Shown here in pieces: positions 5,323 to 26,926 of a stretch of DNA of 64,000 bases (position 1 is the first letter of the stretch; each line of letters starts with the position of its first letter). The notes under the pieces are model-generated. The model was given only the letters and a program-made list of their open reading frames with translations. It ran no database searches and was not told the origin of the DNA. Origin of the DNA: a virus. The position numbers and the translations under genes were made by a program. The stretch covers positions 1-64,000 of the IMG/VR virus record IMGVR_UViG_3300020442_000013. One strand, given 5' to 3'.

Positions 5323-5323
5323 A

Positions 5324-5506: not shown

Positions 5507-5546
5507 TAAATATTGGTATATACAAAAATAAATTACGGAGGACCTC

Positions 5547-6948: not shown

Positions 6949-6978
6949 GTGTGTATCTCCTGTAATATTATTTATATG

Positions 6979-10807: not shown

Positions 10808-10847
10808 CCCCGCTGCTAGGCCACCATTTATCGAAAGGCCCCGCTGC
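10808..10847 (+). repeat. CCCCGCTGC box pair (copy 1)
   Basis: ccccgctgc at 10808-10816 and 10839-10847; recurs at 23638, 23678 and 26236. Confidence 0.75.
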
Positions 10848-10994
10848 ACGGTCTGCGTATATGGAACAGTATTGTGCGTATTTTGTACAAAAGAAAGGCA
10901 CTATGCCTATGATTGAGCAAGTAGAGGTTGACAAACAAGTATAAAGGCAGTAATATGTGTACATAACTTAAAATTTGTAAAGAAAGAGAAGAGA

Positions 10995-11225
10995 TTGACT
11001 AGTTGGATAGATGTAAACGAAAGACTACCTAAAGTAGGCGAACCATGTTGGTATTATTTCGAGCCTGTTGGTAGGCATAGAGGCAAGTTCCACGGCTTGT
11101 ATGAAGATGAGAACGGAAAAACTTGGGAAGGTATGCATATATTTGCTACTGACTATGGCTGGTTAACTGGAGATGTCACTCATTGGCATCCTGATCAAGA
11201 GGAGAAACCTAATGTCCCTGAATAG
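10995..11225 (+). CDS. DUF551-like protein
   Basis: WIDVNERLP ... VTHWHP. Confidence 0.7.
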   Translation: MTSWIDVNERLPKVGEPCWYYFEPVGRHRGKFHGLYEDENGKTWEGMHIFATDYGWLTGDVTHWHPDQEEKPNVPE

Positions 11226-11574
11226 CTCTAATATATCTAAAACCTCTGAAGCTCGTAACAGCTCTGAAGCTCTACACCCTCTGAAGCTCTGCATTGCTCT
11301 GATTGCTCTGACGGCTCTTAGTGCCTGCGGGTCCTCTTATAGGGTGCCTGATTGGGCGGCCGGCGATCCAAAATGCCGGCAAATTGGTTGTGGCCAAGGT
11401 TTGGTTTTTTATCCAAATGAAAAATTTGGAGCCAAAAGACAAGCCAAAGATTTCTATGGTTGGGAAATGGGAAAAACCTCATCTGCCTATCCTCCTTCTG
11501 ATCCAAAACATTGGGAACTCAAAGCCAAAGAAGCGGCCGCAGGCCAAACTCCATGGCATTGGAACAATCAATAA
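11212..11574 (+). CDS. Putative lipoprotein; 5' end overlaps a CTCTG repeat array
   Basis: GAGGAG RBS; hydrophobic stretch with LSAC lipobox. Confidence 0.5.
   Translation: MSLNSSNISKTSEARNSSEALHPLKLCIALIALTALSACGSSYRVPDWAAGDPKCRQIGCGQGLVFYPNEKFGAKRQAKDFYGWEMGKTSSAYPPSDPKHWELKAKEAAAGQTPWHWNNQ
11214..11350 (+). repeat. Phased YCT (CTCTG-type) degenerate array 1
   Basis: ctctgaag x3, gctctg x4 and related units at about 9-nt spacing. Confidence 0.7.
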
Positions 11575-11578
11575 TTCG

Positions 11579-11607
11579 AATATAAAACCAAAATAATTTT
11601 TTGTCAA
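11579..11607 (-). promoter_or_regulatory. Leftward sigma70 promoter (TTGACA-17-TATATT), divergent from the 11642 promoter
   Basis: tgtcaacc at 11602-11609 on + strand; no convincing ORF downstream on the minus strand. Confidence 0.5.
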
Positions 11608-11705
11608 CCAAAATATTTTTCCTGTTTTGGCAAAATTCAGGTTGACTTCTGAGTCTAATGAGGTTATACTATTATTATAAAGTTAGAAAACAGAGAGAGG
11701 TAAAC

Positions 11706-12038
11706 ATGGCATTTTATATCTATGAAAAATCATCTACATATATTATAGGCAAGCCTGACCGCAATGGTGTGGCTCGTCCTGATCATAATCAGTCATATAA
11801 AACTATGGCGGCGGCGAAGGCAGGCCTAACAAGAATCGCAAAGGCAGAAGGGCTTTTACCTACTGATCCAAATTATGCAGAAGTTAGATATGCAATCTGC
11901 GAAACAGATAAATTCCACAAAGACATTGAGAAGTCCGTAAAGAAAACTTCTTACATGGATCCAACAAAGAGTTGGATGGAGCCAGTGAACACTCCATATT
12001 ATTGTTCACCATCATCAGAAACTTATTGGAGTATGTAA
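11706..12038 (+). CDS. Early hypothetical protein (C-terminal PYYCSPSSETYWSM)
   Basis: Own promoter and GAGG RBS; C-terminal motif recurrent in phage early proteins. Confidence 0.7.
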   Translation: MAFYIYEKSSTYIIGKPDRNGVARPDHNQSYKTMAAAKAGLTRIAKAEGLLPTDPNYAEVRYAICETDKFHKDIEKSVKKTSYMDPTKSWMEPVNTPYYCSPSSETYWSM

Positions 12039-12295
12039 TGGGATTAGAAACATTAGCAACGGTTGAGATACGTGAAAGATTTCACAAGTTAGGTCGTCCA
12101 GTGCCTTCCTTTAATTGGGAGTATGGTACGATGTGGATTGATACTGAAGACACAGATGATCTTCGGGTCATCAAAGAAGTCATGGAAGAAGAAGTATTAG
12201 CACCAGGATTAAGGGTGGACTTTAATTTATTAAAAGCCACAGAAACAGAACCATGGGACCAATGGGCCATGGATATAAAAGGAGAGCCAAATTGA
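12038..12295 (+). CDS. Early hypothetical protein
   Basis: TAATG overlap with the upstream gene. Confidence 0.6.
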   Translation: MGLETLATVEIRERFHKLGRPVPSFNWEYGTMWIDTEDTDDLRVIKEVMEEEVLAPGLRVDFNLLKATETEPWDQWAMDIKGEPN

Positions 12296-12535
12296 GTAGA
12301 GAACAAAGATCAACGGAAGAACAAAAGGCCATAGATGATTGGTTGAAAGCAGGTAATAAAATTACCATTTGTCCAAGAGGACAAACTTCTGATGGAGAAC
12401 TTCCAGGTTATGCTTGGGGTAAGAAGAAGAAAAAACCTGCCAAAAAGAAATTGGCAAAATAAAGGTTGACTTTTATAATTAAAGATCATATACTATTTTT
12501 ATAGTTAGAAACAAGGCAACAGAAAGAGGGATAAA

Positions 12536-12922
12536 ATGGCTTATGTATCACAGGCAGACAAGGCAAAATTAGCACCAGCGATTAAGGCGGTGTTGAAAAA
12601 ATATAATATGAAGGGCACTATTGCTGTCAGACATCATTCAACATTGGTTGTGAATATCAAATGCGGAGCAATTGACTTCGCTGGTAGTTATACCCACGGT
12701 GACAAATATATCCAAGTTAATACATATTGGATTCACGATCATTATGATGGTGTGGCAAAAGACTTCCTGCTTGAATTGAAAGATGCAATGGAAGGACCAG
12801 ACTTTTTTAACAACGATGATGCAATGACAGATTATTTTCATCGTTCACATTACATCGATATCAACATTGGTAGTTGGAATAAACCATATATCTGCTATGA
12901 TCAAGAAAAGGTAGCGGCTTGA
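12536..12922 (+). CDS. Early conserved phage protein
   Basis: Own promoter; DDAMTDYFH..HY.DINIG.WNKPY motif. Confidence 0.7.
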   Translation: MAYVSQADKAKLAPAIKAVLKKYNMKGTIAVRHHSTLVVNIKCGAIDFAGSYTHGDKYIQVNTYWIHDHYDGVAKDFLLELKDAMEGPDFFNNDDAMTDYFHRSHYIDINIGSWNKPYICYDQEKVAA

Positions 12923-13118
12923 TGGTAGACCTGTTGCATGATATCGAAGTATTGGAGAAGTCATTAGAACTCGATGACTTTGGTCGACAGATGCTTATCT
13001 GGGACCTAATCCAGAAGAAAAAGAAAGAGTTCACTGACTTTGAAGCAGAGATGTGTCCTAAAGGATATGAACCTGTGGAGGAATATTCAACAATATATAA
13101 ACAAAAGGAGACAGCATA

Positions 13119-13385
13119 ATGGCTGAGGTAACAAGAGTTGGTCATTCAGACGCAGGTCATGGATGGTTGGCAGTGAAACTTGCAGACTTGAAAATGTTAG
13201 GTATCGAATCTGATATTACAGACTTTTCATATGTGAAAGGCAAGACAGCATATCTTGAAGAAGACAAAGATGCAACGACCTACATCAATGCAATGAAGGC
13301 GAAAGGTATCAATGTCGTGGTTAGACATGGTCCACCAAGAGACCGTAGTCCTATCAGATCTTTCAAAAGATATGAGCCTGCATAA
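13119..13385 (+). CDS. Early hypothetical protein
   Basis: AGGAG RBS; D.GHGWLAV...YLEED.DA motif. Confidence 0.65.
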   Translation: MAEVTRVGHSDAGHGWLAVKLADLKMLGIESDITDFSYVKGKTAYLEEDKDATTYINAMKAKGINVVVRHGPPRDRSPIRSFKRYEPA

Positions 13386-13400
13386 TTTAGGAGGTAGCCT

Positions 13401-13604
13401 ATGATAATGGAACTTTGGATTTTGATAGCCTATGTTTTAGGATCAGCGGCTACCTATTTCCTTATGCGAAAACAAATCGCATTCAACATCACAGAATCAA
13501 TTATTGATCAGTTGATAGCCCAAGGATTTCTCCGTTCTAAAAAAGACAAGAACGGTGAGGTAGAAATTGTCAAATGGTATGCACCAGATGAAATTGGCAA
13601 ATAA
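13401..13604 (+). CDS. Small membrane-anchored protein
   Basis: AGGAGG RBS; N-terminal TM helix. Confidence 0.6.
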   Translation: MIMELWILIAYVLGSAATYFLMRKQIAFNITESIIDQLIAQGFLRSKKDKNGEVEIVKWYAPDEIGK

Positions 13605-13673
13605 GAGGTTGACTTTATTGTATTTAGATCATATACTATAAAGACAATTAAGATAAACCACTAGGAGTAAAGG

Positions 13674-13973
13674 ATGACAATGAGCAATTTAGTAACCAAA
13701 GCGGTAGAGAACATTTACCAAATGGATAGCGATCAACTCGAGCAAGTAATCGAGGCAATCAAACTGAAACGCCAGCATTTGGCTAGGCAGGCTACCCGTA
13801 ATATTATGAAGGGTGACATTGTATCTTTCACAGGGCGACGTGGACAAACGGTACAGGGCAAAGTAGAAAAGGTCAATCAAAAGACTATCGTTGTCCGTGA
13901 CTCAAAGTCTAATATCGTGTGGAGGGTGACGGCTTCAATGGTAACCAAATTAGGTATCGGTGAGGCGGCATAA
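13674..13973 (+). CDS. Early protein with a KOW/SH3-like C-terminus
   Basis: Own promoter; GDIVSF...G.V.KVNQKTIVV. Confidence 0.6.
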   Translation: MTMSNLVTKAVENIYQMDSDQLEQVIEAIKLKRQHLARQATRNIMKGDIVSFTGRRGQTVQGKVEKVNQKTIVVRDSKSNIVWRVTASMVTKLGIGEAA

Positions 13974-14365
13974 TGTCAGTTCACATAAAATACAGATTCC
14001 TCAATGAGACTGAGGACTATCAGAAAAATCCTGAGAGGACCAGAGGATATACATTGGTAGAAACCAACTATGAATATCCATTCGACAAAGTATTGAAAGA
14101 TTTCTATCAGGATATTCAAGGTAAGGCTGTTCAAATATTCAACATCTGGAGGGAGGCATAATGGGCCCCTATTCAGAGGACAGGCAATTTCAAAGGGCGA
14201 CCGCTATAAAGCGGTTGCTCGAAAACAATCCTGATTTAGATCCACTTTATCAAGCGATGTGGAAAAAACATCTTAACAATTTGGCTTTGAATGAAACCAC
14301 TTATAATTATAGAGTGAAACACGTCTATTCATGTTTGAAGCCGAGACATAAAAATTGGATTTCCT

Positions 14366-14788
14366 ATGAGTGAAATGCTTAAAGAAGGAGCCAATGTCAC
14401 TATCAAGGTAGAAAATGTAATGTGGCCCTACCGAGATAGATATGCACCAGGTGTCATAAGAGACGAATTCAATTATTACACGGGCAAGGTTGTATATGAG
14501 AAATGGTACAAGGCCAACGAAGTAGGGTTGACTACTGACCAGGATTGGTTTCCTGTCCGTGTAGTTCAAAGGGAAAGAATTGTAGAAGTAAATGACCTTC
14601 CAGTTGATTATTCGGAACCAGAAAGCGATAGAATAGAAGTCAAAGTGACTGGTTCGAAAGGGAACGAATATACGATAGTGAAAGAGCATGGCAAGACCAC
14701 TTGCACCTGTCCGGGATTTCAATTTAGAGGCAGATGCAGACATATTAAAGAATTTGAGCAAAAAGAGTTTGACAAAGTCGATGCTTGA
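14366..14788 (+). CDS. SWIM zinc-finger protein
   Basis: GSKGNEY.I......CTCPGFQFRGRCRH. Confidence 0.75.
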   Translation: MSEMLKEGANVTIKVENVMWPYRDRYAPGVIRDEFNYYTGKVVYEKWYKANEVGLTTDQDWFPVRVVQRERIVEVNDLPVDYSEPESDRIEVKVTGSKGNEYTIVKEHGKTTCTCPGFQFRGRCRHIKEFEQKEFDKVDA

Positions 14789-14970
14789 TGTTATTGTTAA
14801 TAAACTGAAGGAGGCATAAATGATTAAGGCAATTCTATTTTTTGTAATTGGAGCCGGTGCGGCATACCTATATATGAACCCAGGTGATGTTGATGGAATG
14901 CTTGAAATGGGTAAGCAAGGTATTCATAACGGTGCTCTAGTCATTCAAGAAGCAACCAAGGAGTAGGATA

Positions 14971-15249
14971 ATGGATATCCGAGATATTGAACCAGGCAAG
15001 TCTTATGCCTGTAAATTTAAGACAGAACAAGTTTTAGACATCTATGGTCGAATTCCAGGACTTTCTGATACACCTCTAAGAGGTTTGGGTATGTATGAAA
15101 GTTGGGGTCCTATCACGGTTCGTGATATGGCAAGTGAGCACGTTGAGGTTTTAGACCAGAAGAGTAAGAAGAAATTCGTTGTTCCATTTAAGAATATTTG
15201 GGACGTGGATACCGTTATATGGGAGGATAATGAGGATTTGGCAAAATAA
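14971..15249 (+). CDS. Hypothetical protein
   Basis: RBS and compact ORF. Confidence 0.6.
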   Translation: MDIRDIEPGKSYACKFKTEQVLDIYGRIPGLSDTPLRGLGMYESWGPITVRDMASEHVEVLDQKSKKKFVVPFKNIWDVDTVIWEDNEDLAK

Positions 15250-15342
15250 GCCATTGACTTTATTATGTATTCCTGTATAATGTTGAAGTTGATTAGGCAA
15301 AACCTAGTTAATATTTTTAATAAATCAGATAAGGATAATAAT

Positions 15343-15588
15343 ATGCCATTTACTACTATTAAAACTAACCAAAAGGCTTTCCTAGAGAACTACCTAAGAG
15401 GTACAGGAAAATCTTTAACAGCCGCTGACGCGAATGCTCGTTTTGGTATTCAAAAATTACCTGCGAGAATGAGTGAATTCAGAAGTGCTGGGTTGAATGT
15501 GAAAGTCACAAAGAGCTCAAAAGGTACTGCAAGATATTCAGTATCTGCTCGTGATGTCACAGGCAGTCGTGCAAAGATGTTTGCCTAA
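15343..15588 (+). CDS. Winged-helix/HTH DNA-binding protein
   Basis: YLRGTGKSLT...A.ARFGIQKLPARMSEFRSAG; own promoter; followed by a terminator. Confidence 0.6.
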   Translation: MPFTTIKTNQKAFLENYLRGTGKSLTAADANARFGIQKLPARMSEFRSAGLNVKVTKSSKGTARYSVSARDVTGSRAKMFA

Positions 15589-15614
15589 GAGCATCATCTA
15601 AACGAATTAAAAGA

Positions 15615-15641
15615 GGCTATGGAGACATAGCCTTTTTTTTT
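15615..15641 (+). terminator. Rho-independent terminator
   Basis: aggctatg gaga catagcct followed by a T-run. Confidence 0.7.
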
Positions 15642-15708
15642 GGCAAAATTTAGGTTGACATTCTCTCTAATAGATCATATACTATAAGAACAATAAGGGA
15701 GAAGGCTT

Positions 15709-15924
15709 ATGCTATTAAAATTGAAAGGCAAGACCAGACACGGTAAGAATAGGATACACCAACATGGTGATACTTGGGTTATCGAAAGTCATGGTAAGTT
15801 TCAAGGACAGCCTGCATGGTCACTTCGTTCATTGGAAAAGACAGAAGGGCCAAAAGGCAACAAAGGATTCGACGGTCGTTGGGTGTTAAAAGATAACGAC
15901 CCTAATTTTGAAGTGGTATGGTAA
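15709..15924 (+). CDS. Early hypothetical protein
   Basis: Own promoter; LKGKTRHGKNRIHQHG..W motif. Confidence 0.65.
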   Translation: MLLKLKGKTRHGKNRIHQHGDTWVIESHGKFQGQPAWSLRSLEKTEGPKGNKGFDGRWVLKDNDPNFEVVW

Positions 15925-16094
15925 GATGTCTAAAAAATACAGAAAGCCACAGGCACCGAAGGTAAGAAACTTCGTAGCCAAAGAGATGCTAGATCCGGAT
16001 AGTCCTTTTCATGAAAAGACTTTCCGCGATGTTTCAAAAGACGAACAATCGTTTCGCAAGGCGAAACATAAAAAGAAATTTTGGGAGATGCAAG

Positions 16095-16598
16095 ATGATA
16101 GATATAATTGAGAAAGCAGAAAAATTTGCCGTTCAGGCACATGGGCCACAGAAAAGGAAGTATTCTGATCAGCCATATATTGTTCACCCATTAGAGGTTG
16201 CAAAGATTGTTCAGAGTGTACCTCATACCAATGCAATGGTTGCCGCGGCTATCTTGCATGATGTAATCGAAGACACTGAGGCTTCTTACGAAGATGTGGC
16301 TGTGAACTTCGGTACTTTGGTAGCAGACTTGGTTGATGAGTTGACTGATGTGTCTAAGCCAGAAGATGGTAATAGGGCAGTAAGGAAGGCCTTAGATAGG
16401 GCTCACTTGGCAAAGGCAAGTGCTGATGCTCAAACTATCAAATTGGCTGACGTCATTAGCAATACCAAAGACATCAAAGAGAACGATCCTAAGTTCGCAA
16501 AGGTTTACATTCCTGAAATGAAAGCCTTGTTAGAAGTTTTAGACAAGGGTGATAAGACTTTGATGGCAGAGGCAGAAAAACAAGTTTTCGGCAAATAA
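16095..16598 (+). CDS. HD-domain hydrolase, small alarmone hydrolase (SpoT/Mesh1-like)
   Basis: A..AH..QKRK....PYIVHP.EVA, AAILHDVIEDT, V.ELTD, IKLAD.ISN motifs. Confidence 0.85.
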   Translation: MIDIIEKAEKFAVQAHGPQKRKYSDQPYIVHPLEVAKIVQSVPHTNAMVAAAILHDVIEDTEASYEDVAVNFGTLVADLVDELTDVSKPEDGNRAVRKALDRAHLAKASADAQTIKLADVISNTKDIKENDPKFAKVYIPEMKALLEVLDKGDKTLMAEAEKQVFGK

Positions 16599-16668
16599 AA
16601 GGTTGACACCTCCTTCGGGAGGTGTTATACTATAAGAACAATAAGAGATTAACTAGAAGAGGGCTTAT

Positions 16669-17031
16669 ATGGAAAAACAATTAGAATTATTCACAAGCGA
16701 ATGGGGTGTAAGAAACGATGTGAAACACCTTGTAGATCCGCTCAATGATTTATTACCGCCAATGGGCATGGTAAAGAATGCGAACAAGAACAAATGGCTT
16801 GAAAAATTTCGTAAGGCACAGAATGTTTCCTATGACATTTTCAATAATGGTCTTTGTAATAGAGGCAAAGAACTTAAGGTGTTAGGCCTTAAAAAATATG
16901 ATTTGCCATTACCAGAATACTATGGTAGAGATAGTTATTTTCCAGGGAACTGGGATAGGATTGAATTTATGGTAAGTGAGGCGATGGCGCCTATCATTCA
17001 AAAAGCGGCAACAGAACAGGGAGTATTATAA
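16669..17031 (+). CDS. Early hypothetical protein
   Basis: Own promoter; GAGGGC RBS; YDIFNNGLCN motif. Confidence 0.7.
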   Translation: MEKQLELFTSEWGVRNDVKHLVDPLNDLLPPMGMVKNANKNKWLEKFRKAQNVSYDIFNNGLCNRGKELKVLGLKKYDLPLPEYYGRDSYFPGNWDRIEFMVSEAMAPIIQKAATEQGVL

Positions 17032-17264
17032 TGGCAACAGAATTGAAATCCAAAGCACAGAACGTCTTTATTACAAGGTTCTGGGGTGGTAAGAACAAAG
17101 GATCCTGCGTTCAGGTGACACAACCTCGCAAGGACACAAATATGATAGAATTAGATGTGACTGACAAGTTCTTCACATCATTGCAATTAACCAGAGAGCA
17201 GGCCGCAGACTTGGCAACAGATTTGATGGCCTTTGCTATGAAGAGGGAGAAAGAATCGATATGA
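17031..17264 (+). CDS. Early hypothetical protein
   Basis: TRFWGG...G.CVQ.T motif; overlapping start/stop. Confidence 0.6.
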   Translation: MATELKSKAQNVFITRFWGGKNKGSCVQVTQPRKDTNMIELDVTDKFFTSLQLTREQAADLATDLMAFAMKREKESI

Positions 17265-17461
17265 GAAAATATATTAAAATTGGTACCAAGTGTGAGACCA
17301 AGTATGGCCAAGCCAAGGTGACCGGTATAGAATTCTGCGAAGCAGAAGGAATGAAAGAAGGAATTAATATGGACAAGGTGTTCGTAGGAGATAAAAACAG
17401 ATGCGTCTTTGACTTCGATAACGGTCATTGGCAGTATGGATATCAAGTGGAGGCAATATGA
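17261..17461 (+). CDS. Early hypothetical protein
   Basis: ATGA overlap; DFDNGHWQYG.Q. Confidence 0.6.
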   Translation: MRKYIKIGTKCETKYGQAKVTGIEFCEAEGMKEGINMDKVFVGDKNRCVFDFDNGHWQYGYQVEAI

Positions 17462-17718
17462 AATTTCAAGATATAAAATTTAATCACACACCACATAACA
17501 ACGGCGTTCAGGCATTGCTCAACTTTGGCAAATATCAAATGAGCATTGTTCAGCATGATTACTCATATGGAGGTAGCAAAGGTCTATATGAGATTGGAAT
17601 GTTTGAAGGCAAAACAATGGTAGAGATACCTGGTGTCACTGAAGAGGGCGATACGGTAAAAGGTTTTATGACAGAAGAAGATGTCGAAAATGCAATTAAA
17701 AAGATGGAGGATATCTGA
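17458..17718 (+). CDS. Early hypothetical protein
   Basis: GGAGG RBS; SYGG..GLYEI motif. Confidence 0.65.
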   Translation: MKFQDIKFNHTPHNNGVQALLNFGKYQMSIVQHDYSYGGSKGLYEIGMFEGKTMVEIPGVTEEGDTVKGFMTEEDVENAIKKMEDI

Positions 17719-18038
17719 AAGGACTATTAATCATTCTATTGTTTTCAGGTCAGGTTGAATTTAGAGAATTTGACTTCCAGCCCAAAGACTTTGATGGAAC
17801 AAAAGGTTTCACCGATACAGAAATTGTTCTATCATGTTCTGAAGAAGCAGAAAGACAATATGAAAAATTAGGTGCCCATAGTTGGGATGATCCTAGAGGT
17901 CAGTCTTGGTACCTATTTGATGGCACTGGAACGATACAAGGTCATATTTGCTAATTTTGGCAAATAAGAGGTTGACATTATATCTAGAAGGTGTTATAGT
18001 ATAAACATAATTAGAGCTTACATATAGGAGGGCCGCTC

Positions 18039-18413
18039 ATGCAAAATTTAGAAACACACAAAATGATTGACAATGAATATCCAGAGATTGCATTCTATGA
18101 CAAACTCAAAGCAGAACTTGGATACGACACGGTTTGGTCAATGAGCGGTTGTTTACCTTTGGATAAGGCTATTTTTACTGACAAGCCTAGAAAGGTCACT
18201 TATACAATAATTGACAGAATGGGAGACTCCTTTGACGATGTTGATTGGGTCACTTTCAAATCTGTTGCGGAGAATGGTACCGTAGGTGCTCTTTGGAAGG
18301 CGGCAGAAGATTGTTTTCAACAAGCCAAAGAGAACAACGGCGACTGGCATTACTTCATAGAAGACTTTGATATGCAAGAAGACGGTTCACTCAAACTTAT
18401 CACAGGATCTTAA
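18039..18413 (+). CDS. Early hypothetical protein
   Basis: Own promoter; GGAGGGC RBS; H.FIEDF...L.TGS C-terminus. Confidence 0.7.
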   Translation: MQNLETHKMIDNEYPEIAFYDKLKAELGYDTVWSMSGCLPLDKAIFTDKPRKVTYTIIDRMGDSFDDVDWVTFKSVAENGTVGALWKAAEDCFQQAKENNGDWHYFIEDFDMQEDGSLKLITGS

Positions 18414-18414
18414 T

Positions 18415-18723
18415 ATGGCATTCGCTCCGACTTCAACTTATTTTGACAAAGGTGACGGCTCCATTATTGGAAGTTTCGTTGAAAAGGACAATGGTCACCT
18501 TTTTGAGTATTCATCTAACAAAGGTGGCTTCGGTGCACTAGACGGTTGGCCACACAGAGTTTGGGTCACTACCCCGATTGAAAATATTGATAGTGGCTTT
18601 CGTTATGCAAGGGTCCTAAAGACCGTTGCCTACATTGTAGTAGACGAAGATGAATACGGCGATGCGATCGTCGAAAAATGGAACATTAAAAAACAAAGAA
18701 CCTATGAAAGGCGGTTAGCATAA
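18415..18723 (+). CDS. Early hypothetical protein
   Basis: RYARVLKTVAYIVVDEDE.G....EKW motif. Confidence 0.65.
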   Translation: MAFAPTSTYFDKGDGSIIGSFVEKDNGHLFEYSSNKGGFGALDGWPHRVWVTTPIENIDSGFRYARVLKTVAYIVVDEDEYGDAIVEKWNIKKQRTYERRLA

Positions 18724-18934: not shown

Positions 18935-19011
18935 GGTCCCCTAGCTCAGCTGGATAGAGCATCGGTTTGCGGAACCGAAGGTCAGGAGTTCGAATCTCTT
19001 GGGGACCGCCA
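18935..19011 (+). tRNA. tRNA-Arg (anticodon GCG)
   Basis: Acceptor GGTCCCC/GGGGACC, D-arm AGCTCAGCTGGATAGAGC, anticodon arm TCGGT-TTGCGGA-ACCGA, TTCGAAT, encoded CCA. Confidence 0.9.
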
Positions 19012-19429
19012 AAAAGAAAGGACATATGAGAAGAAATAAGTTAGAAAGAAAACTTGATGAATATAATCATACGATGGAATTGATTAGAACTATTTTGCCT
19101 GTGATTATTATCGTTCTTCAAGTTATAATATTGATGAAAATTTTATGATAGGTTTATTCTTTTTAGGAATGATAGTCACTATCATATTTTTTATGATATT
19201 ATTTAGAGTAATGGAATGGGAAAAGAAACAAATGGAGGAAAATGAAGAAGACCAAAGATACTGAATACCATTTGTGTGATGATGGCACTATGGTAGAAAA
19301 GTCAGACTGGGAATGGTTACAGGACCACATGAAGAGAAGAAGACCAAAGAAAAAGAAAAAGAAAAAGATCGCTGGATATTATTATCCAGGCTATGGTAAA
19401 CTTAAAACCCTATATGAGGAGGACAAATA

Positions 19430-19639
19430 ATGGCAGACATTTATAGTGTCAGAAGTATGGCTACTAATAAGGTAGTCCAGTCCGGCTTCGATAAGAAGCA
19501 AGATGCCAAGGCAGTTCGAAACGAACTTTGCAAAGAGGCATGGGACAAATGGTCTCAAAAGGCAGAAGAAAAGAGAGGGCCTAAGCCTTTTCCTTTCACT
19601 GTCACTAGAGGCACTGAACATCCTTATTGGTTAAGTTGA
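19430..19639 (+). CDS. Hypothetical protein
   Basis: GAGGAGG RBS. Confidence 0.6.
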   Translation: MADIYSVRSMATNKVVQSGFDKKQDAKAVRNELCKEAWDKWSQKAEEKRGPKPFPFTVTRGTEHPYWLS

Positions 19640-19836
19640 GGTTGACTTTTACCGATAAAGGTGCTATTATATAAAGATAATGCAGAGGGCATTCGCGTCC
19701 TGGGAACGAGATCATAGATCGGCATTCAAAACTGAGGTTTCCGAATTGATGCAGTCCACATTTTACGGGGTGGGAGTTTTCGACTATAAAAATAAAACTC
19801 CCCCAACATAAAAATAATAATAAGCTGGAGGGCAAA

Positions 19837-20439
19837 ATGACTATTTCAAGAGAACAAATTAAAAAAGCATTCGTCAGTGACGTAAAGAACATTGGTGAAT
19901 ATGTCTATAATAATCAGGATTGGTATCAAGAAGACACTCAAAGAATGAGATACATCTTGGCTACCATAGAACTGTCACCAGGAGATAATTATTCAGAAAA
20001 GCCTAAGCAATATGAACTTGGACAAGAGGACAATAGGTTTTATAATTGCATAGAGTTTCTGGATCAGGGAATGTATAAGATCAATGACGAAAAGAGACTG
20101 CTCGAGCTTATGAACATGAAGCCTAGCCAAGTGGCAGACTATATTGCTGTCAATGAATATGATTGGATAGGCGATGACTACGATCATGCAAATGAATACC
20201 TATTCCAAATAATGAATAACTGGCAGGAAGAAGTTGAGTTCGATACAGAAGATTATGAAAACCCAGATCAGATGACAATAACTCGTAGGGCTAGACAATG
20301 GAATGTAGACCTTGAGACAGGATACAAGAGCGAAAATAAGCATGAAGTGGCCTACCATATCCTAATGGAGTATTGGGATAGTCTTCCAGATGATCACAAA
20401 GAATCAATCCACAAAAGGCTTGAGGCTATAGGTGTATAG
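19837..20439 (+). CDS. Early acidic hypothetical protein
   Basis: GGAGGGCAAA RBS; long leader from promoter 19642. Confidence 0.7.
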   Translation: MTISREQIKKAFVSDVKNIGEYVYNNQDWYQEDTQRMRYILATIELSPGDNYSEKPKQYELGQEDNRFYNCIEFLDQGMYKINDEKRLLELMNMKPSQVADYIAVNEYDWIGDDYDHANEYLFQIMNNWQEEVEFDTEDYENPDQMTITRRARQWNVDLETGYKSENKHEVAYHILMEYWDSLPDDHKESIHKRLEAIGV

Positions 20440-20508
20440 TTTTGGTAAAATAGAGGTTGACATTTCCACAAAAGGTTATATTATATAGATATAACAAAAA
20501 GGAGGAAT

Positions 20509-20970
20509 ATGTTAAAACCTGCAAGCCAAGAAATAAGAAATAAGATAATTGAACAATGCCCTTGGGCAAAAGGCAACAAGATAGAAAAGATTGTATCGCC
20601 TGTTGATTACATAGAGATCTATGCTGTCAGAAGGAAAGATGGTGACAATACCTACTTCTTGAAAGAAGACAAATATCTTAACACCTGTTTCGCAAGTGTC
20701 TATTGGAGACTAGACGACTTTAGATCATCATTAGATTATATGTCGAGATGTCCTGATAGTGTTCTCAGAGCAATGAACAAGGACAATGGTGGCGGCTACT
20801 GGACAAAGAGACAGGTCATAGACAAATTGCTAGAAATCAAAGCAGGATCTAAAACGGCACTGGACGAAGTGATGGATAGATTAAACTGGGAAGATGAAAA
20901 CGAAAAGAAATACAAGGTGTCTAAAGAAATCGCCGAACACGAAATCGGTAGAAAACTTTCGGCATATTAG
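20509..20970 (+). CDS. Early hypothetical protein
   Basis: Own promoter; GGAGG RBS. Confidence 0.7.
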   Translation: MLKPASQEIRNKIIEQCPWAKGNKIEKIVSPVDYIEIYAVRRKDGDNTYFLKEDKYLNTCFASVYWRLDDFRSSLDYMSRCPDSVLRAMNKDNGGGYWTKRQVIDKLLEIKAGSKTALDEVMDRLNWEDENEKKYKVSKEIAEHEIGRKLSAY

Positions 20971-21036
20971 AGGTTGCAATTATCTCTAATAGGTGTTATT
21001 ATATAAGAGTAAGTTAAAAAACAAAAGGAGGGCAAT

Positions 21037-21696
21037 ATGCCAAATTGGTGTAATAATCATATTAATATTCAAGGATCCACAGATACAATTAAAACCCTAT
21101 GGGAACAGGCACAGGCCAACTGGAAGAACGAAGACTACGGTTTGCTGAATGCAATGGTGCCTATGCCAGATGCATTAAAAGGCACTAGGTCACCATCACC
21201 GGACGACGGAAGTCAACCTTCGGTCGACGGCTATACGAACTGGTATGATTGGTGTGTGGCAAACTGGGGTACCAAATGGGATATCTCAGATGAGGGTTTA
21301 GAATTCACAGACAATGGCGATGGTACCGCACAGATATCAGGATGGTTTGAGAGTGCATGGGCACCACCTATCCATGCTTATGATACTTTTCTAGATGACA
21401 TGGATGGTTGTTCGCTTTATGCTACCTACGAAGAGGGTGGTATGGACTTTGCAGGCATCTATGACAATGGTGAAGATGAATACATGGAGAACCTATCAGA
21501 GGCTTGCGAAGAAGTGGTAAAAGGTGAAGTGCCACTAGAAGAGCAGAGTGAATTGTTTCGACGCCTAGATGATGAGTTTGAGCTCGTAGAGAACAGGCGT
21601 GAATACATCGAAGAGCAAATGGAAGAAGAAGCAGAACAGGCTCGTAAGGATGAGAAGCGAGGTGTTTATGCTGAACACGAAGACGTGGCTAACTAG
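21037..21696 (+). CDS. DUF1281/Api92-like (YubB ferredoxin-like) protein
   Basis: MPNWCNN, WYDWCVANWGTKWD, F.SAWAPP, YEE.GMDFAG. Confidence 0.8.
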   Translation: MPNWCNNHINIQGSTDTIKTLWEQAQANWKNEDYGLLNAMVPMPDALKGTRSPSPDDGSQPSVDGYTNWYDWCVANWGTKWDISDEGLEFTDNGDGTAQISGWFESAWAPPIHAYDTFLDDMDGCSLYATYEEGGMDFAGIYDNGEDEYMENLSEACEEVVKGEVPLEEQSELFRRLDDEFELVENRREYIEEQMEEEAEQARKDEKRGVYAEHEDVAN

Positions 21697-21911
21697 GAGG
21701 TGGCAATGGATAATCTAGCAAGAGCAAAGAAGGTAAAAAAACTTCTAGGCCTACGTGGCAATGACACCGACAGTGAATATTATAGGGTAGCAGACGCAGT
21801 CACCGACCTCATGCACTTCTGTGATAGCAAGGGCATTGATTTTGATCAGGAGATGCGAATGGCTGATACCTATTATGTGAGTGAACTAGAAGAACAAAAG
21901 GAGATAGCCTA

Positions 21912-22265
21912 ATGGCAACCGCGATAGACGATAAAATCATAGAAGATTCAGAAATAGTTATAGGAACTGACACCCGTGGTGACAGTCTTACACAGAGCAT
22001 CATTGCAGAACGATTGGTAGCATATGATCTCACAGACATGATGAGATGTGCCGCCCATGGTGACTTTGAATACATAGCAGACAAATTATCAGATGGCTGG
22101 AGAGGCTATCATCGAATGAGTCCAGGAGAATTATGGACCGAATACAAGGAAATAGAAGAAAGTTTCCTAGATGCAGTAGAAACAGGCAGTTTGGTTGTGG
22201 GTCTCAAGGAAGAAGATCCTTTGACCAAGCCAATCCACAATGGCAAGCCATTTAGGCAGGTATAG
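21912..22265 (+). CDS. Hypothetical protein
   Basis: AGGAG RBS; TAATG overlap. Confidence 0.6.
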   Translation: MATAIDDKIIEDSEIVIGTDTRGDSLTQSIIAERLVAYDLTDMMRCAAHGDFEYIADKLSDGWRGYHRMSPGELWTEYKEIEESFLDAVETGSLVVGLKEEDPLTKPIHNGKPFRQV

Positions 22266-22282
22266 TTAAGTATTAGCAGAGA

Positions 22283-22720
22283 GTGACTCGTAAATTCAAA
22301 AAAAGGTATATGATAGTGACAGATAGTGATAATACCCTACCACCCGAACCACCGGAGAGATACGTCTTGGACAAGCTCACCCTGGAGCAGTTGGCAGGGA
22401 TATTTACCTGGGCCCAGATTACCATTGACGCACAGATGGATGACGAAAGTGCTGATGATATGCAAGACGTCATGAGCGAAGTAGCAGAAAGACTGGGTCT
22501 GGAATACTACGACACAAAGACACGGATAGAAGAACTAGAGCCAGAACAAGAAGGCAGTAGAACCTTTAAGATCAGGGTAGATGTGGAAAAAACGCCACCC
22601 AAGCCCGCTCTTGTGTGGACCAACGATCAACCCGACAAAAAGGGGCTTAAAATTGTTGACAAGGACTATCAAGAACCTTCCAATGACGATAACGAGCCAG
22701 ATCCACCCAAGAAAGCATAA
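22283..22720 (+). CDS. Hypothetical protein
   Basis: Long ORF co-oriented with neighbours. Confidence 0.55.
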   Translation: MTRKFKKRYMIVTDSDNTLPPEPPERYVLDKLTLEQLAGIFTWAQITIDAQMDDESADDMQDVMSEVAERLGLEYYDTKTRIEELEPEQEGSRTFKIRVDVEKTPPKPALVWTNDQPDKKGLKIVDKDYQEPSNDDNEPDPPKKA

Positions 22721-22731
22721 AGGAGCAGTCT

Positions 22732-23154
22732 ATGATATCACCCAAAACCCTATCAGCCCTAGTCATAGTTGGTGCGATGGCCAGTTGTGCCCCAGCAGTG
22801 GCATTTACCTGTGACGACCCCCTGGCTACCAAAGAACAGATACAGAAATGCAATGACCTAGAAGAATTCCTACGTGTAGACCCCAAGATATTCCACGTGC
22901 CCATACCCAAGAGCCTAGGCACCACCCTTGGTGAAGCATGGACCAACAGACCTAGATGCTCAGACTCAGTAACCCCAGGAACGGTAATCCAAACAGACCC
23001 ACCCACTTATAATTGCGGAGATCTAGAAGTAAAAACACCCGAACAACAGGCCATAGACGAACTCGAACGCAGAATACAAGAACTAGAACGCCATGTGAAC
23101 AACCTTAGACGTGCAAGGATAAAAGCCGCGGGTAAATGTGGAGTTTTGGAATAA
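22732..23154 (+). CDS. Secreted hypothetical protein
   Basis: AAGGAG RBS; signal peptide; C-terminal coiled coil. Confidence 0.6.
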   Translation: MISPKTLSALVIVGAMASCAPAVAFTCDDPLATKEQIQKCNDLEEFLRVDPKIFHVPIPKSLGTTLGEAWTNRPRCSDSVTPGTVIQTDPPTYNCGDLEVKTPEQQAIDELERRIQELERHVNNLRRARIKAAGKCGVLE

Positions 23155-23178
23155 AAGAGGGGTGCGAAGAGCCTCTTG

Positions 23179-23210
23179 AGCCGCGAAGCGGTTGCGGCAG
23201 CAAAAATTTT
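23179..23210 (+). repeat. Left copy of an inverted element (AGCCGCGAAGCGGTT + GCGGCAGCAAAAATTTT)
   Basis: Reverse complements occur at 33972-33986 (15/15) and 33918-33934 (16/17). Confidence 0.75.
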
Positions 23211-23637
23211 TTCGCATAACGAAGGAGATTTTATGAATAGAATAGGAAACCTTGGAATACTACTAGCGGGAATTGGCTTTTTACTTTGGGGCCTGGGAAG
23301 TGCAGTAGATTCCTATATTATACTGGAAGACTATCGTTGGGAACAGGAAATGATGCAGAACGAGACTAGTATATACAGAGAAGACTGGTTAGGTACTCAA
23401 GAACTATTCAAAATGGGTGCTTAGAATGACAGCATTGGAATGGTTCTGTATAGCATTCGTAATCCAGGCAATCCATGTTGCTGTCACTGGTGATGTGGTA
23501 ATGATACCACTTAATTAGACTATGACTTGCTTTTTGATGTGTGATTCCTACTATACTGCCATTGGCTTGTACGGTGTAGGCATCATCCTATTTGCTCTGT
23601 TCGTAATGTGGCTGAGTAGGTAAGATAGACTAGATGG

Positions 23638-23686
23638 CCCCGCTGCTGGATCTGAGGTTGAACAGATTGGGTGCAGGCCCCGCTGC
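23638..23686 (+). repeat. CCCCGCTGC box pair (copy 2)
   Basis: ggccccgctgc twice, cores at 23638-23646 and 23678-23686. Confidence 0.75.
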
Positions 23687-24001
23687 GGTCTCCATGGTTC
23701 TAGAGGGGTCGATAAATATTGATATGGATAGAAGAGAACAGATAACACAGATGCTGAAGGATCGTATAGCACGGTTCAAGAGGGAGAATGCCCACATATG
23801 GGAGAAACCTAGTAGGCTGTTTAAGGATGAACCCAAAGAGCCTGAGAAGAGGGAACTCACACCCGCAGAGAAAATGAAACGTGATCTAGGGTTCTAAAAG
23901 TATTTGAACTATGCCTCTCGTCACCTCAGACGAACCAAAATTTTCTATAGTTGAAACCGTGGGAAAATGTGAATCTCACCGTGATTTCCATACGAGAGGG
24001 G

Positions 24002-24250
24002 CCTCTTAACCCTGATCTAAGGGCCCTGTACGGTGCCTTAAAACCCCCCTTATCCTGAACCACCCTGATCGGCCTGAAGGCCTCTATACGCTTCTCTTAC
24101 ACGCTCTAAGAAGGGGTCTGAACGGTCTGAACTCTTTACTATGTTCTTAACACGCTCTTAACGCTCTGAATCAACTCTGTGCCCTAACCTTTTGAAATTG
24201 TTGGATTTTTTGGCCTCGGGAGCTGTCTTTTCGCTCGCCCTCGCCTCTAC
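24002..24250 (+). repeat. Phased YCT degenerate array 2 (non-coding)
   Basis: cctga, tctgaa, ctctta, ctctga and cctct units every about 8-11 nt in an ORF-free region. Confidence 0.7.
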
Positions 24251-24549
24251 TATGTATTATCCAATAAAATCAATGTGTTAGCAGTCAAAGTTAATGTAAT
24301 GGATGAGGAGGGGTGTCACTAATATCGTTCTTTCACCTAAGTCATTGTTATTGTTGGCTTTTTCGGGGTCTACCTCGTTCTTTCCGTTCTTCTACGTAAC
24401 CTCTTGATTTTGTTGGATTTTTTTTGGAGACACACAAGTCAGAATTCGGCCAGCCTGTAGCCCTTTGCTTTTTTTCTGCCCCTTGCTGTTTTGCTTTATC
24501 CATTTTTTTGCGGACGGGGTCGCTTAAAGCAGTTTCTTATTATGTTTAT

Positions 24550-24578
24550 ACTATAGCACAAACAACCCACATTGTCAA
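24550..24578 (-). promoter_or_regulatory. Leftward early promoter (TTGACA-17-TATAGT), divergent from 24613
   Basis: Minus strand reads ttggcgaaaaagaggTTGACAatgtgggttgtttgtgcTATAGT; no ORF downstream. Confidence 0.75.
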
Positions 24579-24672
24579 CCTCTTTTTCGCCAAAAAAAAA
24601 ATAAATTAGGGGTTGACTTTTGGACAAAATGAGACTACTATGTATATAACAATTAAGCAATAGGAGGGCACA

Positions 24673-24810
24673 TTGCAAAACTTACTAAACAAAATTACAC
24701 TTTGGTTTTTGAACAGAGCATACGAGCAGATGGAGGCTAGTGGCGACTTGCAGAACGCAGACGATGTGGCTGAGCATATAGAAGATTATTTTACTAATTT
24801 TGTAAAATAA
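24673..24810 (+). CDS. 45-aa immediate-early protein, TC/CC-free
   Basis: Hand-translated from TTG: MQNLLNKITLWFLNRAYEQMEASGDLQNADDVAEHIEDYFTNFVK; own promoter; GGAGGGC RBS. Confidence 0.6.
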   Translation: MQNLLNKITLWFLNRAYEQMEASGDLQNADDVAEHIEDYFTNFVK

Positions 24811-24875
24811 CGGTTGACTTTTGAGCAAAATGAGGTTATTATAATATTAACAATTAACAATAAATGAGGGCAAAT

Positions 24876-25379
24876 ATGATAAACACAAAAAACTTAACAG
24901 CAGATTTTAACGTAGATTTACACGTAAACGATTGGACAAAAAACATAGTAAACACAATTAGGGTTGTTGAAGACAGAGATGTGTTTACACAAGTTGAAAA
25001 AGATTTTGTGATACAGTTTTTGGTAAACACGCTAGACGGCTTAACACACATTAACATTGAAAGCAGACAAGAAGGTGCAGGCTTTTACAGAATGTGTGAT
25101 GCACAGGAAGTTATGACGCACTTAACAACATTGTATGATAACAACAATGCTAATGAAAGCATAGATGATAGCAAAATAGGCTGGCAGTTTACACTTGCAG
25201 ATGCTGCAGATGCATTGTTAGGCTACGATACAGAATACAGGGATTGTATTACAGAAAATTTTGATGATGCTTGTAATGATGCTTGTGAGGACAAGTTTTG
25301 GCAACAACACGCAGACGCAGATTTTACTACACTTGCTGCAAGAATATTTGCTAAAAACGGTTACAGCTGCTACGAATAA
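24876..25379 (+). CDS. Acidic proline-free early protein, TC/CC-free
   Basis: Own promoter; GAGGGCAA RBS; no Pro, all Ser codons AGY. Confidence 0.75.
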   Translation: MINTKNLTADFNVDLHVNDWTKNIVNTIRVVEDRDVFTQVEKDFVIQFLVNTLDGLTHINIESRQEGAGFYRMCDAQEVMTHLTTLYDNNNANESIDDSKIGWQFTLADAADALLGYDTEYRDCITENFDDACNDACEDKFWQQHADADFTTLAARIFAKNGYSCYE

Positions 25380-25459
25380 AACGGTAAAAAAAAGGTTGAC
25401 ACTATAGCATTTGTGTGCTATAGTGTTACTATAATTACAAAAGCATACGGAGGGCAACT

Positions 25460-25885
25460 ATGCAAAACACACGTTATGAACTACTAAACAAACTACAAGC
25501 TAAACTTGGGGACGCGATTACTATTTACGACGAGTATGAAGGCGAGCACAGACTGAATTTTTATAGTGTAAGCATAAACTTGGGAACAGGTTTTGCTGGG
25601 AACTACAAAGGTGGTTACTGGGGCGATTGTAATATTAAGAATGACGAGCTTAAACTTGCATTTGTATATGGGGACGTATACGATGAAGGTGAAGAGTGTT
25701 TTGGTGAGGGTACGGTACAATTAGAATATGCTGACGGTAGCGGACTTGCATACACAGGCGAGTTAGATAAACTTGTAGAGCGTAAGGTTGAAGAGCTTAC
25801 AGGCGGACTTATAACTTGTAGCGGTAGCGAACAGGGAATGCAGGGAGACGATTACTTGAGTGTAGACGTAGACGAGGCTGCATAA
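25460..25885 (+). CDS. Acidic proline-free early protein, TC/CC-free
   Basis: Own promoter; GGAGGGCAA RBS; C-terminal SEQGMQGDDY.S.DV motif. Confidence 0.75.
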   Translation: MQNTRYELLNKLQAKLGDAITIYDEYEGEHRLNFYSVSINLGTGFAGNYKGGYWGDCNIKNDELKLAFVYGDVYDEGEECFGEGTVQLEYADGSGLAYTGELDKLVERKVEELTGGLITCSGSEQGMQGDDYLSVDVDEAA

Positions 25886-25949
25886 AACGGTTGACATATT
25901 GGATGTTGTGTGCTATATTAAAGCATAATAAAAATTAAGAGGGCAATAC

Positions 25950-26219
25950 ATGACACACTTAACAATTTATGCACTAGCACATGACAGCAATAGCACTGAG
26001 GACGTTTATATAAGTTTACATGACAAAGTAAAACTTTACATAAAACTAGCAGACAGCACAGGCAAAGCACTTGTGCAGCGTAGCGTCTCAAATTTTAAGC
26101 AGGCAATAACTGCATTGCAATGTTATAACATAACACACGTAGACATAAGCTACAACGTGGACGTAACAGACAGCATAAACAAACTAGCACACAAAATATA
26201 TTTGCACTATTTAAAATAG
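25950..26219 (+). CDS. Proline-free early protein, nearly TC/CC-free
   Basis: Own promoter; GAGGGCAA RBS; only two TC (26086, 26088). Confidence 0.7.
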   Translation: MTHLTIYALAHDSNSTEDVYISLHDKVKLYIKLADSTGKALVQRSVSNFKQAITALQCYNITHVDISYNVDVTDSINKLAHKIYLHYLK

Positions 26220-26235
26220 TGCTTATATAGTACGA

Positions 26236-26244
26236 CCCCGCTGC
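26236..26244 (+). repeat. CCCCGCTGC box (copy 3)
   Basis: cgaccccgctgcta identical over 14 bp to 10805-10818. Confidence 0.7.
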
Positions 26245-26335
26245 TAAGACACAGAATAAATGAGAAATTGGCAAATAAGAGGTTGACATTGTAAATAGAC
26301 TATGCTATAGTATAAACATAATAAGGAGATGGCAC

Positions 26336-26524
26336 ATGAAATGTTCGATTTGTAAGACGACTATTAAGAAGGATCCCCTAAGCGGTTGGGATGGTGGACA
26401 CAATGCAGAACCGGCAAGTCCGGGAAGATGTTGTGATGATTGTAATACGCACATTGTTATCCCTCTGCGTATTAACAATTTGTTTGCGGCTTCGAAGCCG
26501 ATTCCTAAAGAGGCACAATGCTAG
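26336..26524 (+). CDS. Small zinc-finger-like protein
   Basis: CSIC...GHNAEP...GRCCDDCN..IVIP.R; own promoter. Confidence 0.7.
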   Translation: MKCSICKTTIKKDPLSGWDGGHNAEPASPGRCCDDCNTHIVIPLRINNLFAASKPIPKEAQC

Positions 26525-26823
26525 ACAACTGGAGAACCGACTTTGACTGGACCGATCCTGAAGACGCTCCGGTCAGTTGGTCCGAGTTGGACGCTGAGTT
26601 AGAGAAGCAGAAAGCTCCTTGGGACCGGCCTGAAGCCCAGCAGACCCTGAAGGTCCGATTCGTCAATGGCGGCTCTGTAGGATGCCTTAGGACGGCCTCT
26701 GTAGTCAGACAGGAGCTCTGCGAACAGACTCTTATGCCGCTCTTAATAATCCAAGACCCTTGGAACCCACAGGAGACCCTAACCTGTCGTTGGTATGACA
26801 ACGAATGGGTCCATGAATCATAG
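26518..26823 (+). CDS. Hypothetical protein overlapping YCT array 3
   Basis: GAGG RBS; central part is dense in cctga/ctctg/ctctta units. Confidence 0.45.
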   Translation: MLDNWRTDFDWTDPEDAPVSWSELDAELEKQKAPWDRPEAQQTLKVRFVNGGSVGCLRTASVVRQELCEQTLMPLLIIQDPWNPQETLTCRWYDNEWVHES

Positions 26824-26889
26824 AATAACCTGGCGTCTTATTAGGTCGGGAGATGTTCGAAGTTCTTTCGAGGCCGAAAGGCGAGAGGC

Positions 26890-26918
26890 ATTATAGCACA
26901 TTTTATGCTATAATGCAA
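26890..26918 (-). promoter_or_regulatory. Leftward promoter (TTGCAT-17-TATAAT) embedded in an 11-bp inverted repeat
   Basis: gcattatagca (26888-26898) / tgctataatgc (26906-26916). Confidence 0.6.
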
Positions 26919-26926
26919 GTATTTTT

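Follow-up and report, generated by a model that had tools for sequence, protein, structure and literature searches.

A conserved non-coding region with boxes and phased short-unit arrays in an uncultured jumbo phage, possibly a replication-origin-type site

Very little is known about replication origins, or about other cis-acting control regions, in jumbo phages. Here we describe a conserved non-coding region, and two further sites that share sequence elements with it, in the first 64 kb (64,000 nucleotides, hereafter the window) of a 101,244-bp IMG/VR virus record, IMGVR_UViG_3300020442_000013. Each of the three sites, which we call modules 1, 2 and 3, contains a short box followed by an array of short units. 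The record is a fragment (completeness ~29% by CheckV) of an uncultured jumbo phage, from a clade without a cultured member. It encodes a DnaB-type helicase, a DNA polymerase, a UvsX-like recombinase and three tRNAs. The helicase has ~50% identity to Pseudomonas PA5oct-like jumbo phages, the nearest cultured relatives, and megablast and blastn searches with the early region and modules 1-3 gave no useful DNA-level match to cultured phages. We found no support for a plasmid-like or temperate lifestyle, as five records contain neither ParB nor a tyrosine integrase. Genes are directed rightward from 10.9 to ~34 kb, behind a family of near-consensus sigma-70 promoters (TTGGCAAA..AGGTTGACA-N17-TATAGTATAA) found once every 1-2 kb. 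Relatives were recovered with the 23-nt core of a 29-mer in module 2 as probe, which gave 11 viral contigs, and a metagenome protein search added 19 further loci. They are referred to below by handles such as G006 or L185.

Boxes and arrays at three sites

The box, CCCCGCTGC, occurs five times in the window: at 10808-10816 and 10839-10847 (site 1), at 23638-23646 and 23678-23686 (site 2), and at 26236-26244 (site 3). All copies are on the plus strand and none is reversed, where 0.04 copies per window are expected by shuffling. No further copy, exact or with one mismatch, was found in the whole 101,244-bp record. The site 1 boxes are located in a divergent intergenic region, to the right of a 69-aa minus-strand gene, and the box has the same position in G008, G009 and L203. 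The site 2 boxes are inside an 87-aa open reading frame (ORF87, 23634-23897), which is lineage-specific and fast-evolving; tblastn over all fetched relatives found no homolog of it, and only the syntenic DNA of L185 aligns (~72%). The site 3 box is located 47 nt before the -35 element of a promoter at 26283-26311.

The box is scarce and strand-specific in each relative examined: the 262-kb G006 contains 2 copies and the 237-kb G007 contains 3. G008 contains 5 boxes at three sites that are 11.8 and 2.3 kb apart, in agreement with the three sites of the window, which are 12.8 and 2.6 kb apart. In G006, G007 and G010, sites 1 and 2 are fused beside the 69-aa minus-strand gene. The extended consensus among relatives is RGGCCCCGCTGYWARG, with boxes of the form GGCCCCGCTGY. 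When viral contigs were scanned for box pairs 15-45 nt apart, the search lacked specificity and returned chance matches in GC-rich phages. Two ideas about the box were rejected. A role as part of a promoter was considered, as the box is at or near the start site at site 3 of the window and in G007 and G009, but this placement is inconsistent. A covariation of the 3′ half of the box with the array unit, an idea formed by eye, was dropped because L159 breaks the pattern. The 69-aa gene adjoining the site 1 box (10551-10760, minus strand) is conserved in at least 10 relatives with 52-71% identity. The AlphaFold model of its product (pLDDT 76) is a small SH3/Tudor-like beta-barrel with weak Foldseek matches.

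Matches to CTCTG, CTCTTA or CCTGA reach 11, 9 and 8 per 200 nt at 11148, 23976 and 26541, whereas all other 200-nt segments on both strands contain at most 3 (mean 0.31). The unit of the arrays is YCT[G/T]A (YCTKA). The three dense YCTKA arrays at these positions are the only ones found, and all are downstream of boxes, with 369, 326 and 321 nt between the nearest box and the first unit at sites 1, 2 and 3, respectively. Array A1 (11208-11351, plus strand) contains 15 units, mostly 9 nt apart. Array A2 (24004-24190, plus strand) is non-coding and contains 20 units, 9-12 nt apart. Array A3 (26557-26790, plus strand) contains 11 looser units within the gene of a 101-aa protein, with gaps of 11-19 nt and more. 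An internal 35-nt duplication in A1 puts the YCTKA unit in different reading frames; the units of A3 are in all three frames and are retained in L185 despite amino acid changes. These frame-independent units in A1 and A3 suggest that the array signal acts at the level of the nucleic acid. A search with a pattern derived from A1 gave no matches.

The initial annotation, made from the window sequence alone, had described one composite module three times: a box, an array about 310-370 nt away whose signal lies in the DNA rather than in the protein, and a leftward promoter facing inward. All five boxes, the absence of unlinked copies, the enrichment of the arrays only beside boxes, their distances and their independence of the protein held up. 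The box, the array and their order do recur three times. However, the modules share no sequence beyond the box and the type of unit and have no extended homology, so they are not homologous copies, nor are they equivalent. The leftward promoters at sites 1 and 2 are credible (11 of 12 consensus positions each), and the third is an intrinsic terminator.

Module 2 is a conserved non-coding region

Module 2 (23.6-24.6 kb) is the only module conserved in relatives. An invariant 29-mer, AAAGTATTTGAACTATGCCTCTCGTCACC (23897-23925, plus strand), is identical in 8 aligned lineages that are otherwise ~70% identical, and a 30-nt stretch directly after ORF87 (23896-23925) is identical in a contig of 70% identity. 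L185 aligns colinearly, with ~85% identity, to 18.8-34 kb of the window. Positions 23897-24097 are 99-100% identical between the two, equal to the tRNA genes, and the flanks are 70-85% identical. Identity over the non-coding block as a whole is ~95%, and the block is sharply bounded at 23858 and 24592. Substitutions between the window and L185 in A2 and A3 keep the YCTKA core (TTCTTAAC to TTCTGAAC, CCCTGA to CTCTGA, CCTTAGG to CCTGAAG), even where the peptide GSVGCLRTAS becomes GYGSDEGLKEVS. This retention of the units under substitution argues against neutrality.

Array A2 contains a conserved CCTTAAAACC motif and a GC hairpin, GGCCTGAAGGCC, at 24071-24082. It is C>G-skewed (78 C vs 47 G in 250 nt), and its RNA is unstructured. 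RNA folding of both strands of module 2 was no better than that of shuffled sequences (z = +0.84 for the strand of A2 and -0.49 for the other), which argues against a structured RNA gene, and Rfam at gathering and permissive thresholds found only tRNAs. The antitermination element boxA has the consensus CGCTCTTA or GCTCTTTAACAA, adjoined by a boxB hairpin in lambda nut or rrn sites. A2 contains boxA-like CGCTCTTAA and CTCTTACAC with the GGCCTGAAGGCC hairpin upstream; we rejected a boxA/nut reading because relatives keep the hairpin but no boxA-like unit.

A 27-nt repeat is present in three copies at 24185, 24338 and 24397 (within 24185-24423), forming IHF-like sites preceded by A-tracts. The exact IHF consensus, WATCAANNNNTTR, is found at 24268 (plus strand) and 24397 (minus strand), within 130 bp. 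These are two of the 15 exact sites in the genome, and two copies with one mismatch are found in the 27-nt repeat with its A-tracts.

The region ends at a leftward promoter, P2 (24578-24550, minus strand, TTGACA-17-TATAGT), which matches the consensus at 11 of 12 positions. P2 is a full member of the early-promoter family of the phage (83% identity over 58 nt), and its -35 element is 35 nt from that of a rightward promoter at 24613. In 7 of 11 lineages, an inward early promoter of this kind marks the boundary of the region (window, L185, L188, L191, G008, G009 and G006). RNA starting at P2 would be purine-rich, with a run of six G ~490 nt from its start, just before the 29-mer and the most conserved DNA. 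The segment from ~+50 to +140 of this leftward transcript is conserved in the window, L185, L188 and L191. As the initial annotation had predicted, AGAG and CAGG are enriched in the leftward RNA sense, AGAG with counts of 10, 8 and 5 where 0.5-0.8 are expected.

All relatives that cover the region share several same-strand boxes, the 29-mer and a C-rich CCNTAAAACC zone. The GC hairpin is also common to the module-2 homologs, with compensated stems (GGCC-UGAA-GGCC, GGGCC-UUCG-GCCC and others). The homologs consist of about 0.5-1 kb of non-coding DNA with short-unit arrays, corresponding to a 0.7-kb untranslated tract in the window, and the relatives' own units cluster only there. The unit itself varies: it is of the CTCTGA type in the window, CTCACTGT in G001, CTACTACAC in G007, G010 and G011, and CTCTACTGT in G009. 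Arrays are found on both sides of the 29-mer and in both orientations in some relatives, as expected for sites on duplex DNA. The region is located at the divergence of minus- and plus-strand gene blocks in G006, G007 and G010.

Sites for host factors, IHF-consensus sites among them, are found in the homologous region of several relatives. G009 contains seven perfect DnaA boxes (TGTGGATAA) in tandem within ~130 bp (L168 ~15.85-16.0 kb), and G006 contains three perfect and one near-perfect DnaA box (61.5-61.7 kb; L170/L091). G006 also contains a dif site in which both the XerC and the XerD arm match Escherichia coli dif exactly, together with a second one with 2 mismatches, and G001 contains two XerCD dif sites with 2-3 mismatches (reverse-complement positions 881 and 955). 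Among relatives, dif sites are flanked by pairs of DnaA boxes. These sites point to a gammaproteobacterial host and to a jumbo phage that may use or titrate host DnaA and XerCD.

YC-free genes beside module 2

The genes that follow module 2 are nearly devoid of the dinucleotides TC and CC (YC). Positions 24591-26345 (plus strand) contain no YC on the sense strand except in GTCTC at 26086 and in the box at 26236. There are 0 YC among ~180 cytosines in 24591-26086, and 26089-26236 and 26239-26345 are likewise YC-free. Further to the right, YC is missing from the other strand of 26888-27372 and from the plus strand of 27351-27728. Without TC or CC on the sense strand, these units contain no proline codons. 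The site 3 box is the sole YC island within its YC-free block (GGCCCCGCTG), and the same is seen in the blocks of G008 and G007. In nine lineages (window, G001, G006, G007, G008, G010, L185, L188 and L191), YC-free blocks lie on the right-hand side of module 2 or its homolog. These genes bear on the interpretation of the arrays because the primary sites of the transcription terminator Rho bind YC.

Modules 1 and 3 and other genes

In module 1, the boxes are followed by a rightward sigma-70 promoter (10928-10956, TTGACA-17-TAATAT), a DUF551 gene of 76 aa (10995-11225, plus strand; Pfam PF04448, E = 4.8e-5) and a lipoprotein gene (11212-11574, plus strand) with the lipobox LSAC. The first ~45 codons of the lipoprotein gene are array A1. 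The lipoprotein genes of G008, G009 and L203 encode ordinary signal peptides, and these relatives have neither the array nor the leftward promoter. At site 1 of G009 (L168 3700-4100), a gene for an entericidin-like small lipoprotein precedes the homolog of the window's lipoprotein. Both G009 proteins have normal signal peptides, showing that in the window's lineage A1 has taken the place of the N-terminus. The leftward promoter P1 (11607-11579, minus strand, TTGACA-17-TATATT, 11 of 12 matches) is back to back with a rightward promoter at 11642 and is missing in G008, G009 and L203. Both credible leftward promoters are thus paired with a rightward early promoter (in 11570-11670 and 24540-24650), with a gap of 35 nt from -35 to -35.

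Module 3 contains the genes of a 62-aa Cys-rich protein (26336-26524, plus strand) and of the 101-aa protein (26518-26823, plus strand). Both are conserved in L185 with third-position changes, which indicates that they are real genes. The element at 26888-26916 (plus strand), where the initial annotation had placed a third leftward promoter, is not called as a promoter; it is an intrinsic terminator, as judged from a perfect 11-bp hairpin followed by a T-run between convergent genes.

Three other loci were noted in the window. The product of 49214-50506 (minus strand) matches a PHROG labelled 'tail protein' (E = 6e-136), and its tblastn matches are annotated as YieG-type inorganic anion or nucleobase permeases (54% identity); the gene probably encodes an auxiliary transporter and not a tail protein. 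An early gene at 16011-16598 (plus strand) encodes an HD_4 (RelA/SpoT-type HD) domain, possibly a (p)ppGpp hydrolase. To the left of site 1, the block at 3612-8444 encodes a class I/II aminotransferase, a DUF454 protein, a 2OG-Fe(II) oxygenase, an AlgH-like protein and a peptidoglycan-binding protein, for which DNA- or cell-wall-modifying functions are possible.

Discussion

We read module 2 as the window's copy of a control region, non-coding and conserved in the clade, on which DNA-binding proteins of host and phage would assemble. Its most likely role, with a probability of about 0.4, is that of a replication-origin-type site of the iteron type. A nucleoprotein site is favored by the DnaA, dif and IHF sites in homologs, together with near-perfect sequence conservation, arrays that occur in both orientations in relatives and an inward promoter that is conserved. 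The conserved core of the origin would consist of the GGCCCCGCTGY boxes and the invariant 29-mer. The phased YCTKA units may be iteron-like sites for a phage-specific binding protein, and the three IHF-like sites may bend the DNA. The inward early promoter would transcribe across the region and activate it, or prime it with the purine-rich RNA. In other lineages, the same region would recruit DnaA through clusters of DnaA boxes and XerCD through dif sites. The arrays at sites 1 and 3 may be lineage-specific extra clusters of units beside conserved boxes. They can be compared with the secondary iteron clusters of plasmids such as P1, which titrate initiators. The initial annotation had raised an origin with iteron-like sites and an inward promoter for all three modules; comparison with relatives supports this for module 2 and not for modules 1 and 3.

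Several observations weigh against this proposal. Arrays at sites 1 and 3 are found in the window's lineage only and are absent from relatives, and A1 and A3 are inside translated genes. The units, of 5-7 nt at a spacing of 9-10 nt, are far shorter than classical iterons (17-22 bp), and their sequence differs between phages without an identified co-varying protein. No initiator gene was found beside the region, as the neighboring ORFs have no Pfam or PHROG replication match, and no clearly distinct AT-rich unwinding element was seen in module 2. Neither a DnaA box (with up to 1 mismatch) nor a dif site was found in the window. GC skew, examined as an origin marker in the window and in the 262-kb relative, merely tracks gene orientation. 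The inward promoter is missing in G001, G007, G010 and G011. Finally, the function of the box is left unexplained if the region is an origin.

The arrays could act in the rightward early RNA, as idealized Rho-loading (Rho utilization, rut) sites, with the YC-free genes being invisible to Rho. We regard this as the main rival reading, possible at rather low odds and compatible with an origin; the initial annotation had not considered Rho. A2 would then end a 12-kb early operon before the YC-free block. In the two genes that contain A1 and A3, transcription would be coupled to translation; alternatively, the arrays would serve to titrate Rho. A Rho subunit accommodates 5 nt of RNA, with YC in its primary-site cleft, and linkers of 4-5 nt separate these segments; rut sites span 60-90 nt, contain more C than G and lack structure (PMC12360218). 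The arrays may be called idealized because the 9-10 nt YC phasing of A1 and A2 matches this geometry: both contain 5-nt YC-bearing units every 9-10(-12) nt across 140-190 nt. A2 is C>G-biased, unstructured and at least 60-90 nt long, with 20 spaced YC units on the nascent RNA, A1 has 15 units ~9 nt apart, and every unit is on the sense strand of early transcription. A2 is untranslated, and the only terminator-like hairpin after it is weak, with 5 bp (24364-24377). In most relatives, the 29-mer is followed by a YC-rich zone with C>G, and blocks like the neighboring 1.5 kb without YC are present in nine lineages, the window included. However, the units are more specific than Rho needs, with T and A conserved at positions 3 and 5, and 99-100% conservation over 200 nt is beyond the need of a rut site. 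The CTACTAC-unit arrays of G007, G010 and G011 hold few YC, and the C-rich strand of G006 is the opposite one. A1 and A3 are translated, and ribosomes would therefore shield them from Rho. The box and the DnaA, dif and IHF sites would stay unexplained, and YC is absent altogether, which seems more than the avoidance of Rho would demand. A broader version, which we hold somewhat more doubtful, is that the phage programs host Rho by dinucleotide design. The immediate-early genes would be kept YC-free across the clade at the cost of having no proline codons, the phased YC arrays would be engineered to load or titrate Rho, and the box would be the only YC element that selection keeps in a YC-free block.

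Module 2 may also be a DNA-entry, genome-end or packaging site, like the injection stop signal (iss) of phage T5 or a terminal-repeat/pac site, with the YC-free genes being the first expressed after entry; we consider this unlikely. The T5 iss is a large untranslated repeat-rich tract with paired DnaA boxes, duplicated a few kb apart and near pre-early genes with strong host promoters, and a role of its DnaA boxes is a hypothesis only (bioRxiv 10.1101/866236). Module 2 offers a 0.7-kb untranslated repeat tract, DnaA boxes in relatives, a distinctive adjoining gene block and boxes at three sites spaced at 12.8 and 2.6 kb. All records are genome fragments, and the key elements are internal in G006 (61 kb), G007 (boxes at 82-84 kb), G004, G005, G012 and G013. 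The G001 contig ends 25 nt from a box, but we rejected contig ends as evidence for genome ends since only G001 ends in this way. No terminal repeat was detected at the ends of the 101,244-bp record, the T5 iss is not known to include dif sites, and DnaA boxes paired in inverted repeats as in T5 were not found in the window; those of relatives are tandem. A non-coding RNA from the leftward promoter(s), with ~20 purine-rich repeats (UCAGAG, UAAGAG, UCAGG) that titrate an RNA-binding protein in the manner of CsrB or RsmZ, would fit the near-consensus P1 and P2 that face arrays and are not followed by a conserved ORF. It would also fit the 10- to 50-fold enrichment of AGAG and CAGRG in the leftward sense and the conserved +50 to +140 segment. 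We rejected the CsrB-like form and consider this type of RNA improbable in general: GGA, the core of CsrA sites, is not enriched, the 653-nt RNA has neither a fold signal (z = -0.49) nor an Rfam match, the leftward promoter is lacking at A3 and in four lineages, and the neighboring 69-aa protein has no CsrA HMM match and a fold unlike CsrA. Slightly less probable still, the arrays may be roadblocks dense in DNA modification, as the initial annotation had suggested, or functionless repeats that grew by slippage. GA and GG are abundant on the minus strand of the arrays, a context reported for 7-deazaguanine insertion in some phages, and the record contains a radical-SAM enzyme, an aminotransferase and a weak QueC-like piece. 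We found no support for deazaguanine modification or for such roadblocks, as no DpdA/TGT gene was found in the 101 kb and the QueC-like fragment is weak. The internal 35-nt duplication of A1 is consistent with slippage, but the units are kept under substitution between the window and L185. One unit type at three loci, each beside a conserved box, speaks against both roadblocks and neutral repeats.

We describe a conserved non-coding hub that can be recognized from sequence alone by its box, 29-mer, hairpin and arrays. It provides a concrete candidate DNA segment for an origin, entry or packaging function, with DnaA, XerCD or IHF sites depending on the lineage. In addition, YC-free genes beside arrays phased like the RNA-binding crown of Rho suggest an idea of how a phage may evade or exploit Rho.

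Among known systems, iteron origins (P1 oriR with incC/incA, F oriS, RK2 oriV, lambda ori and T4 oriE) resemble module 2 in having a cluster of same-strand direct repeats, IHF sites, a promoter reading in and extra repeat clusters elsewhere on the replicon. In relatives, the resemblance extends to DnaA boxes and to a nearby multimer-resolution site, which is dif in G006 and G001. The phage described here differs in that two arrays are in translated genes, no adjacent initiator gene was found, the box and the 29-mer have no counterpart, and the unit varies between sister phages. Origins primed or activated by transcription (T4 oriF/oriG, ColE1 RNA II and the T7 primary origin) share with module 2 a strong promoter into a non-coding region and a purine-rich RNA with a run of six G before the most conserved DNA. 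They differ from it in that the promoter is missing in four related lineages, and any R-loop, RNase H site or unwinding element in module 2 would be hypothetical. Compared with natural rut sites (PMC12360218), the arrays show much greater regularity and have 2-3 times the length, the unit is conserved beyond YC, and two arrays are within ORFs; they share the C>G bias, the unstructured RNA and the 5-nt YC units at 9-10 nt, with A2 untranslated at the end of an operon. The T5 iss (bioRxiv 10.1101/866236) has no sequence relation to module 2, which lacks a terminal repeat and, in the window, DnaA boxes, and which has IHF sites and, in relatives, dif sites. The two are alike in being untranslated repeat-rich regions that are more conserved than the neighboring genes, in the DnaA boxes of relatives, in related repeat regions a few kb apart and in strong host-type promoters nearby.

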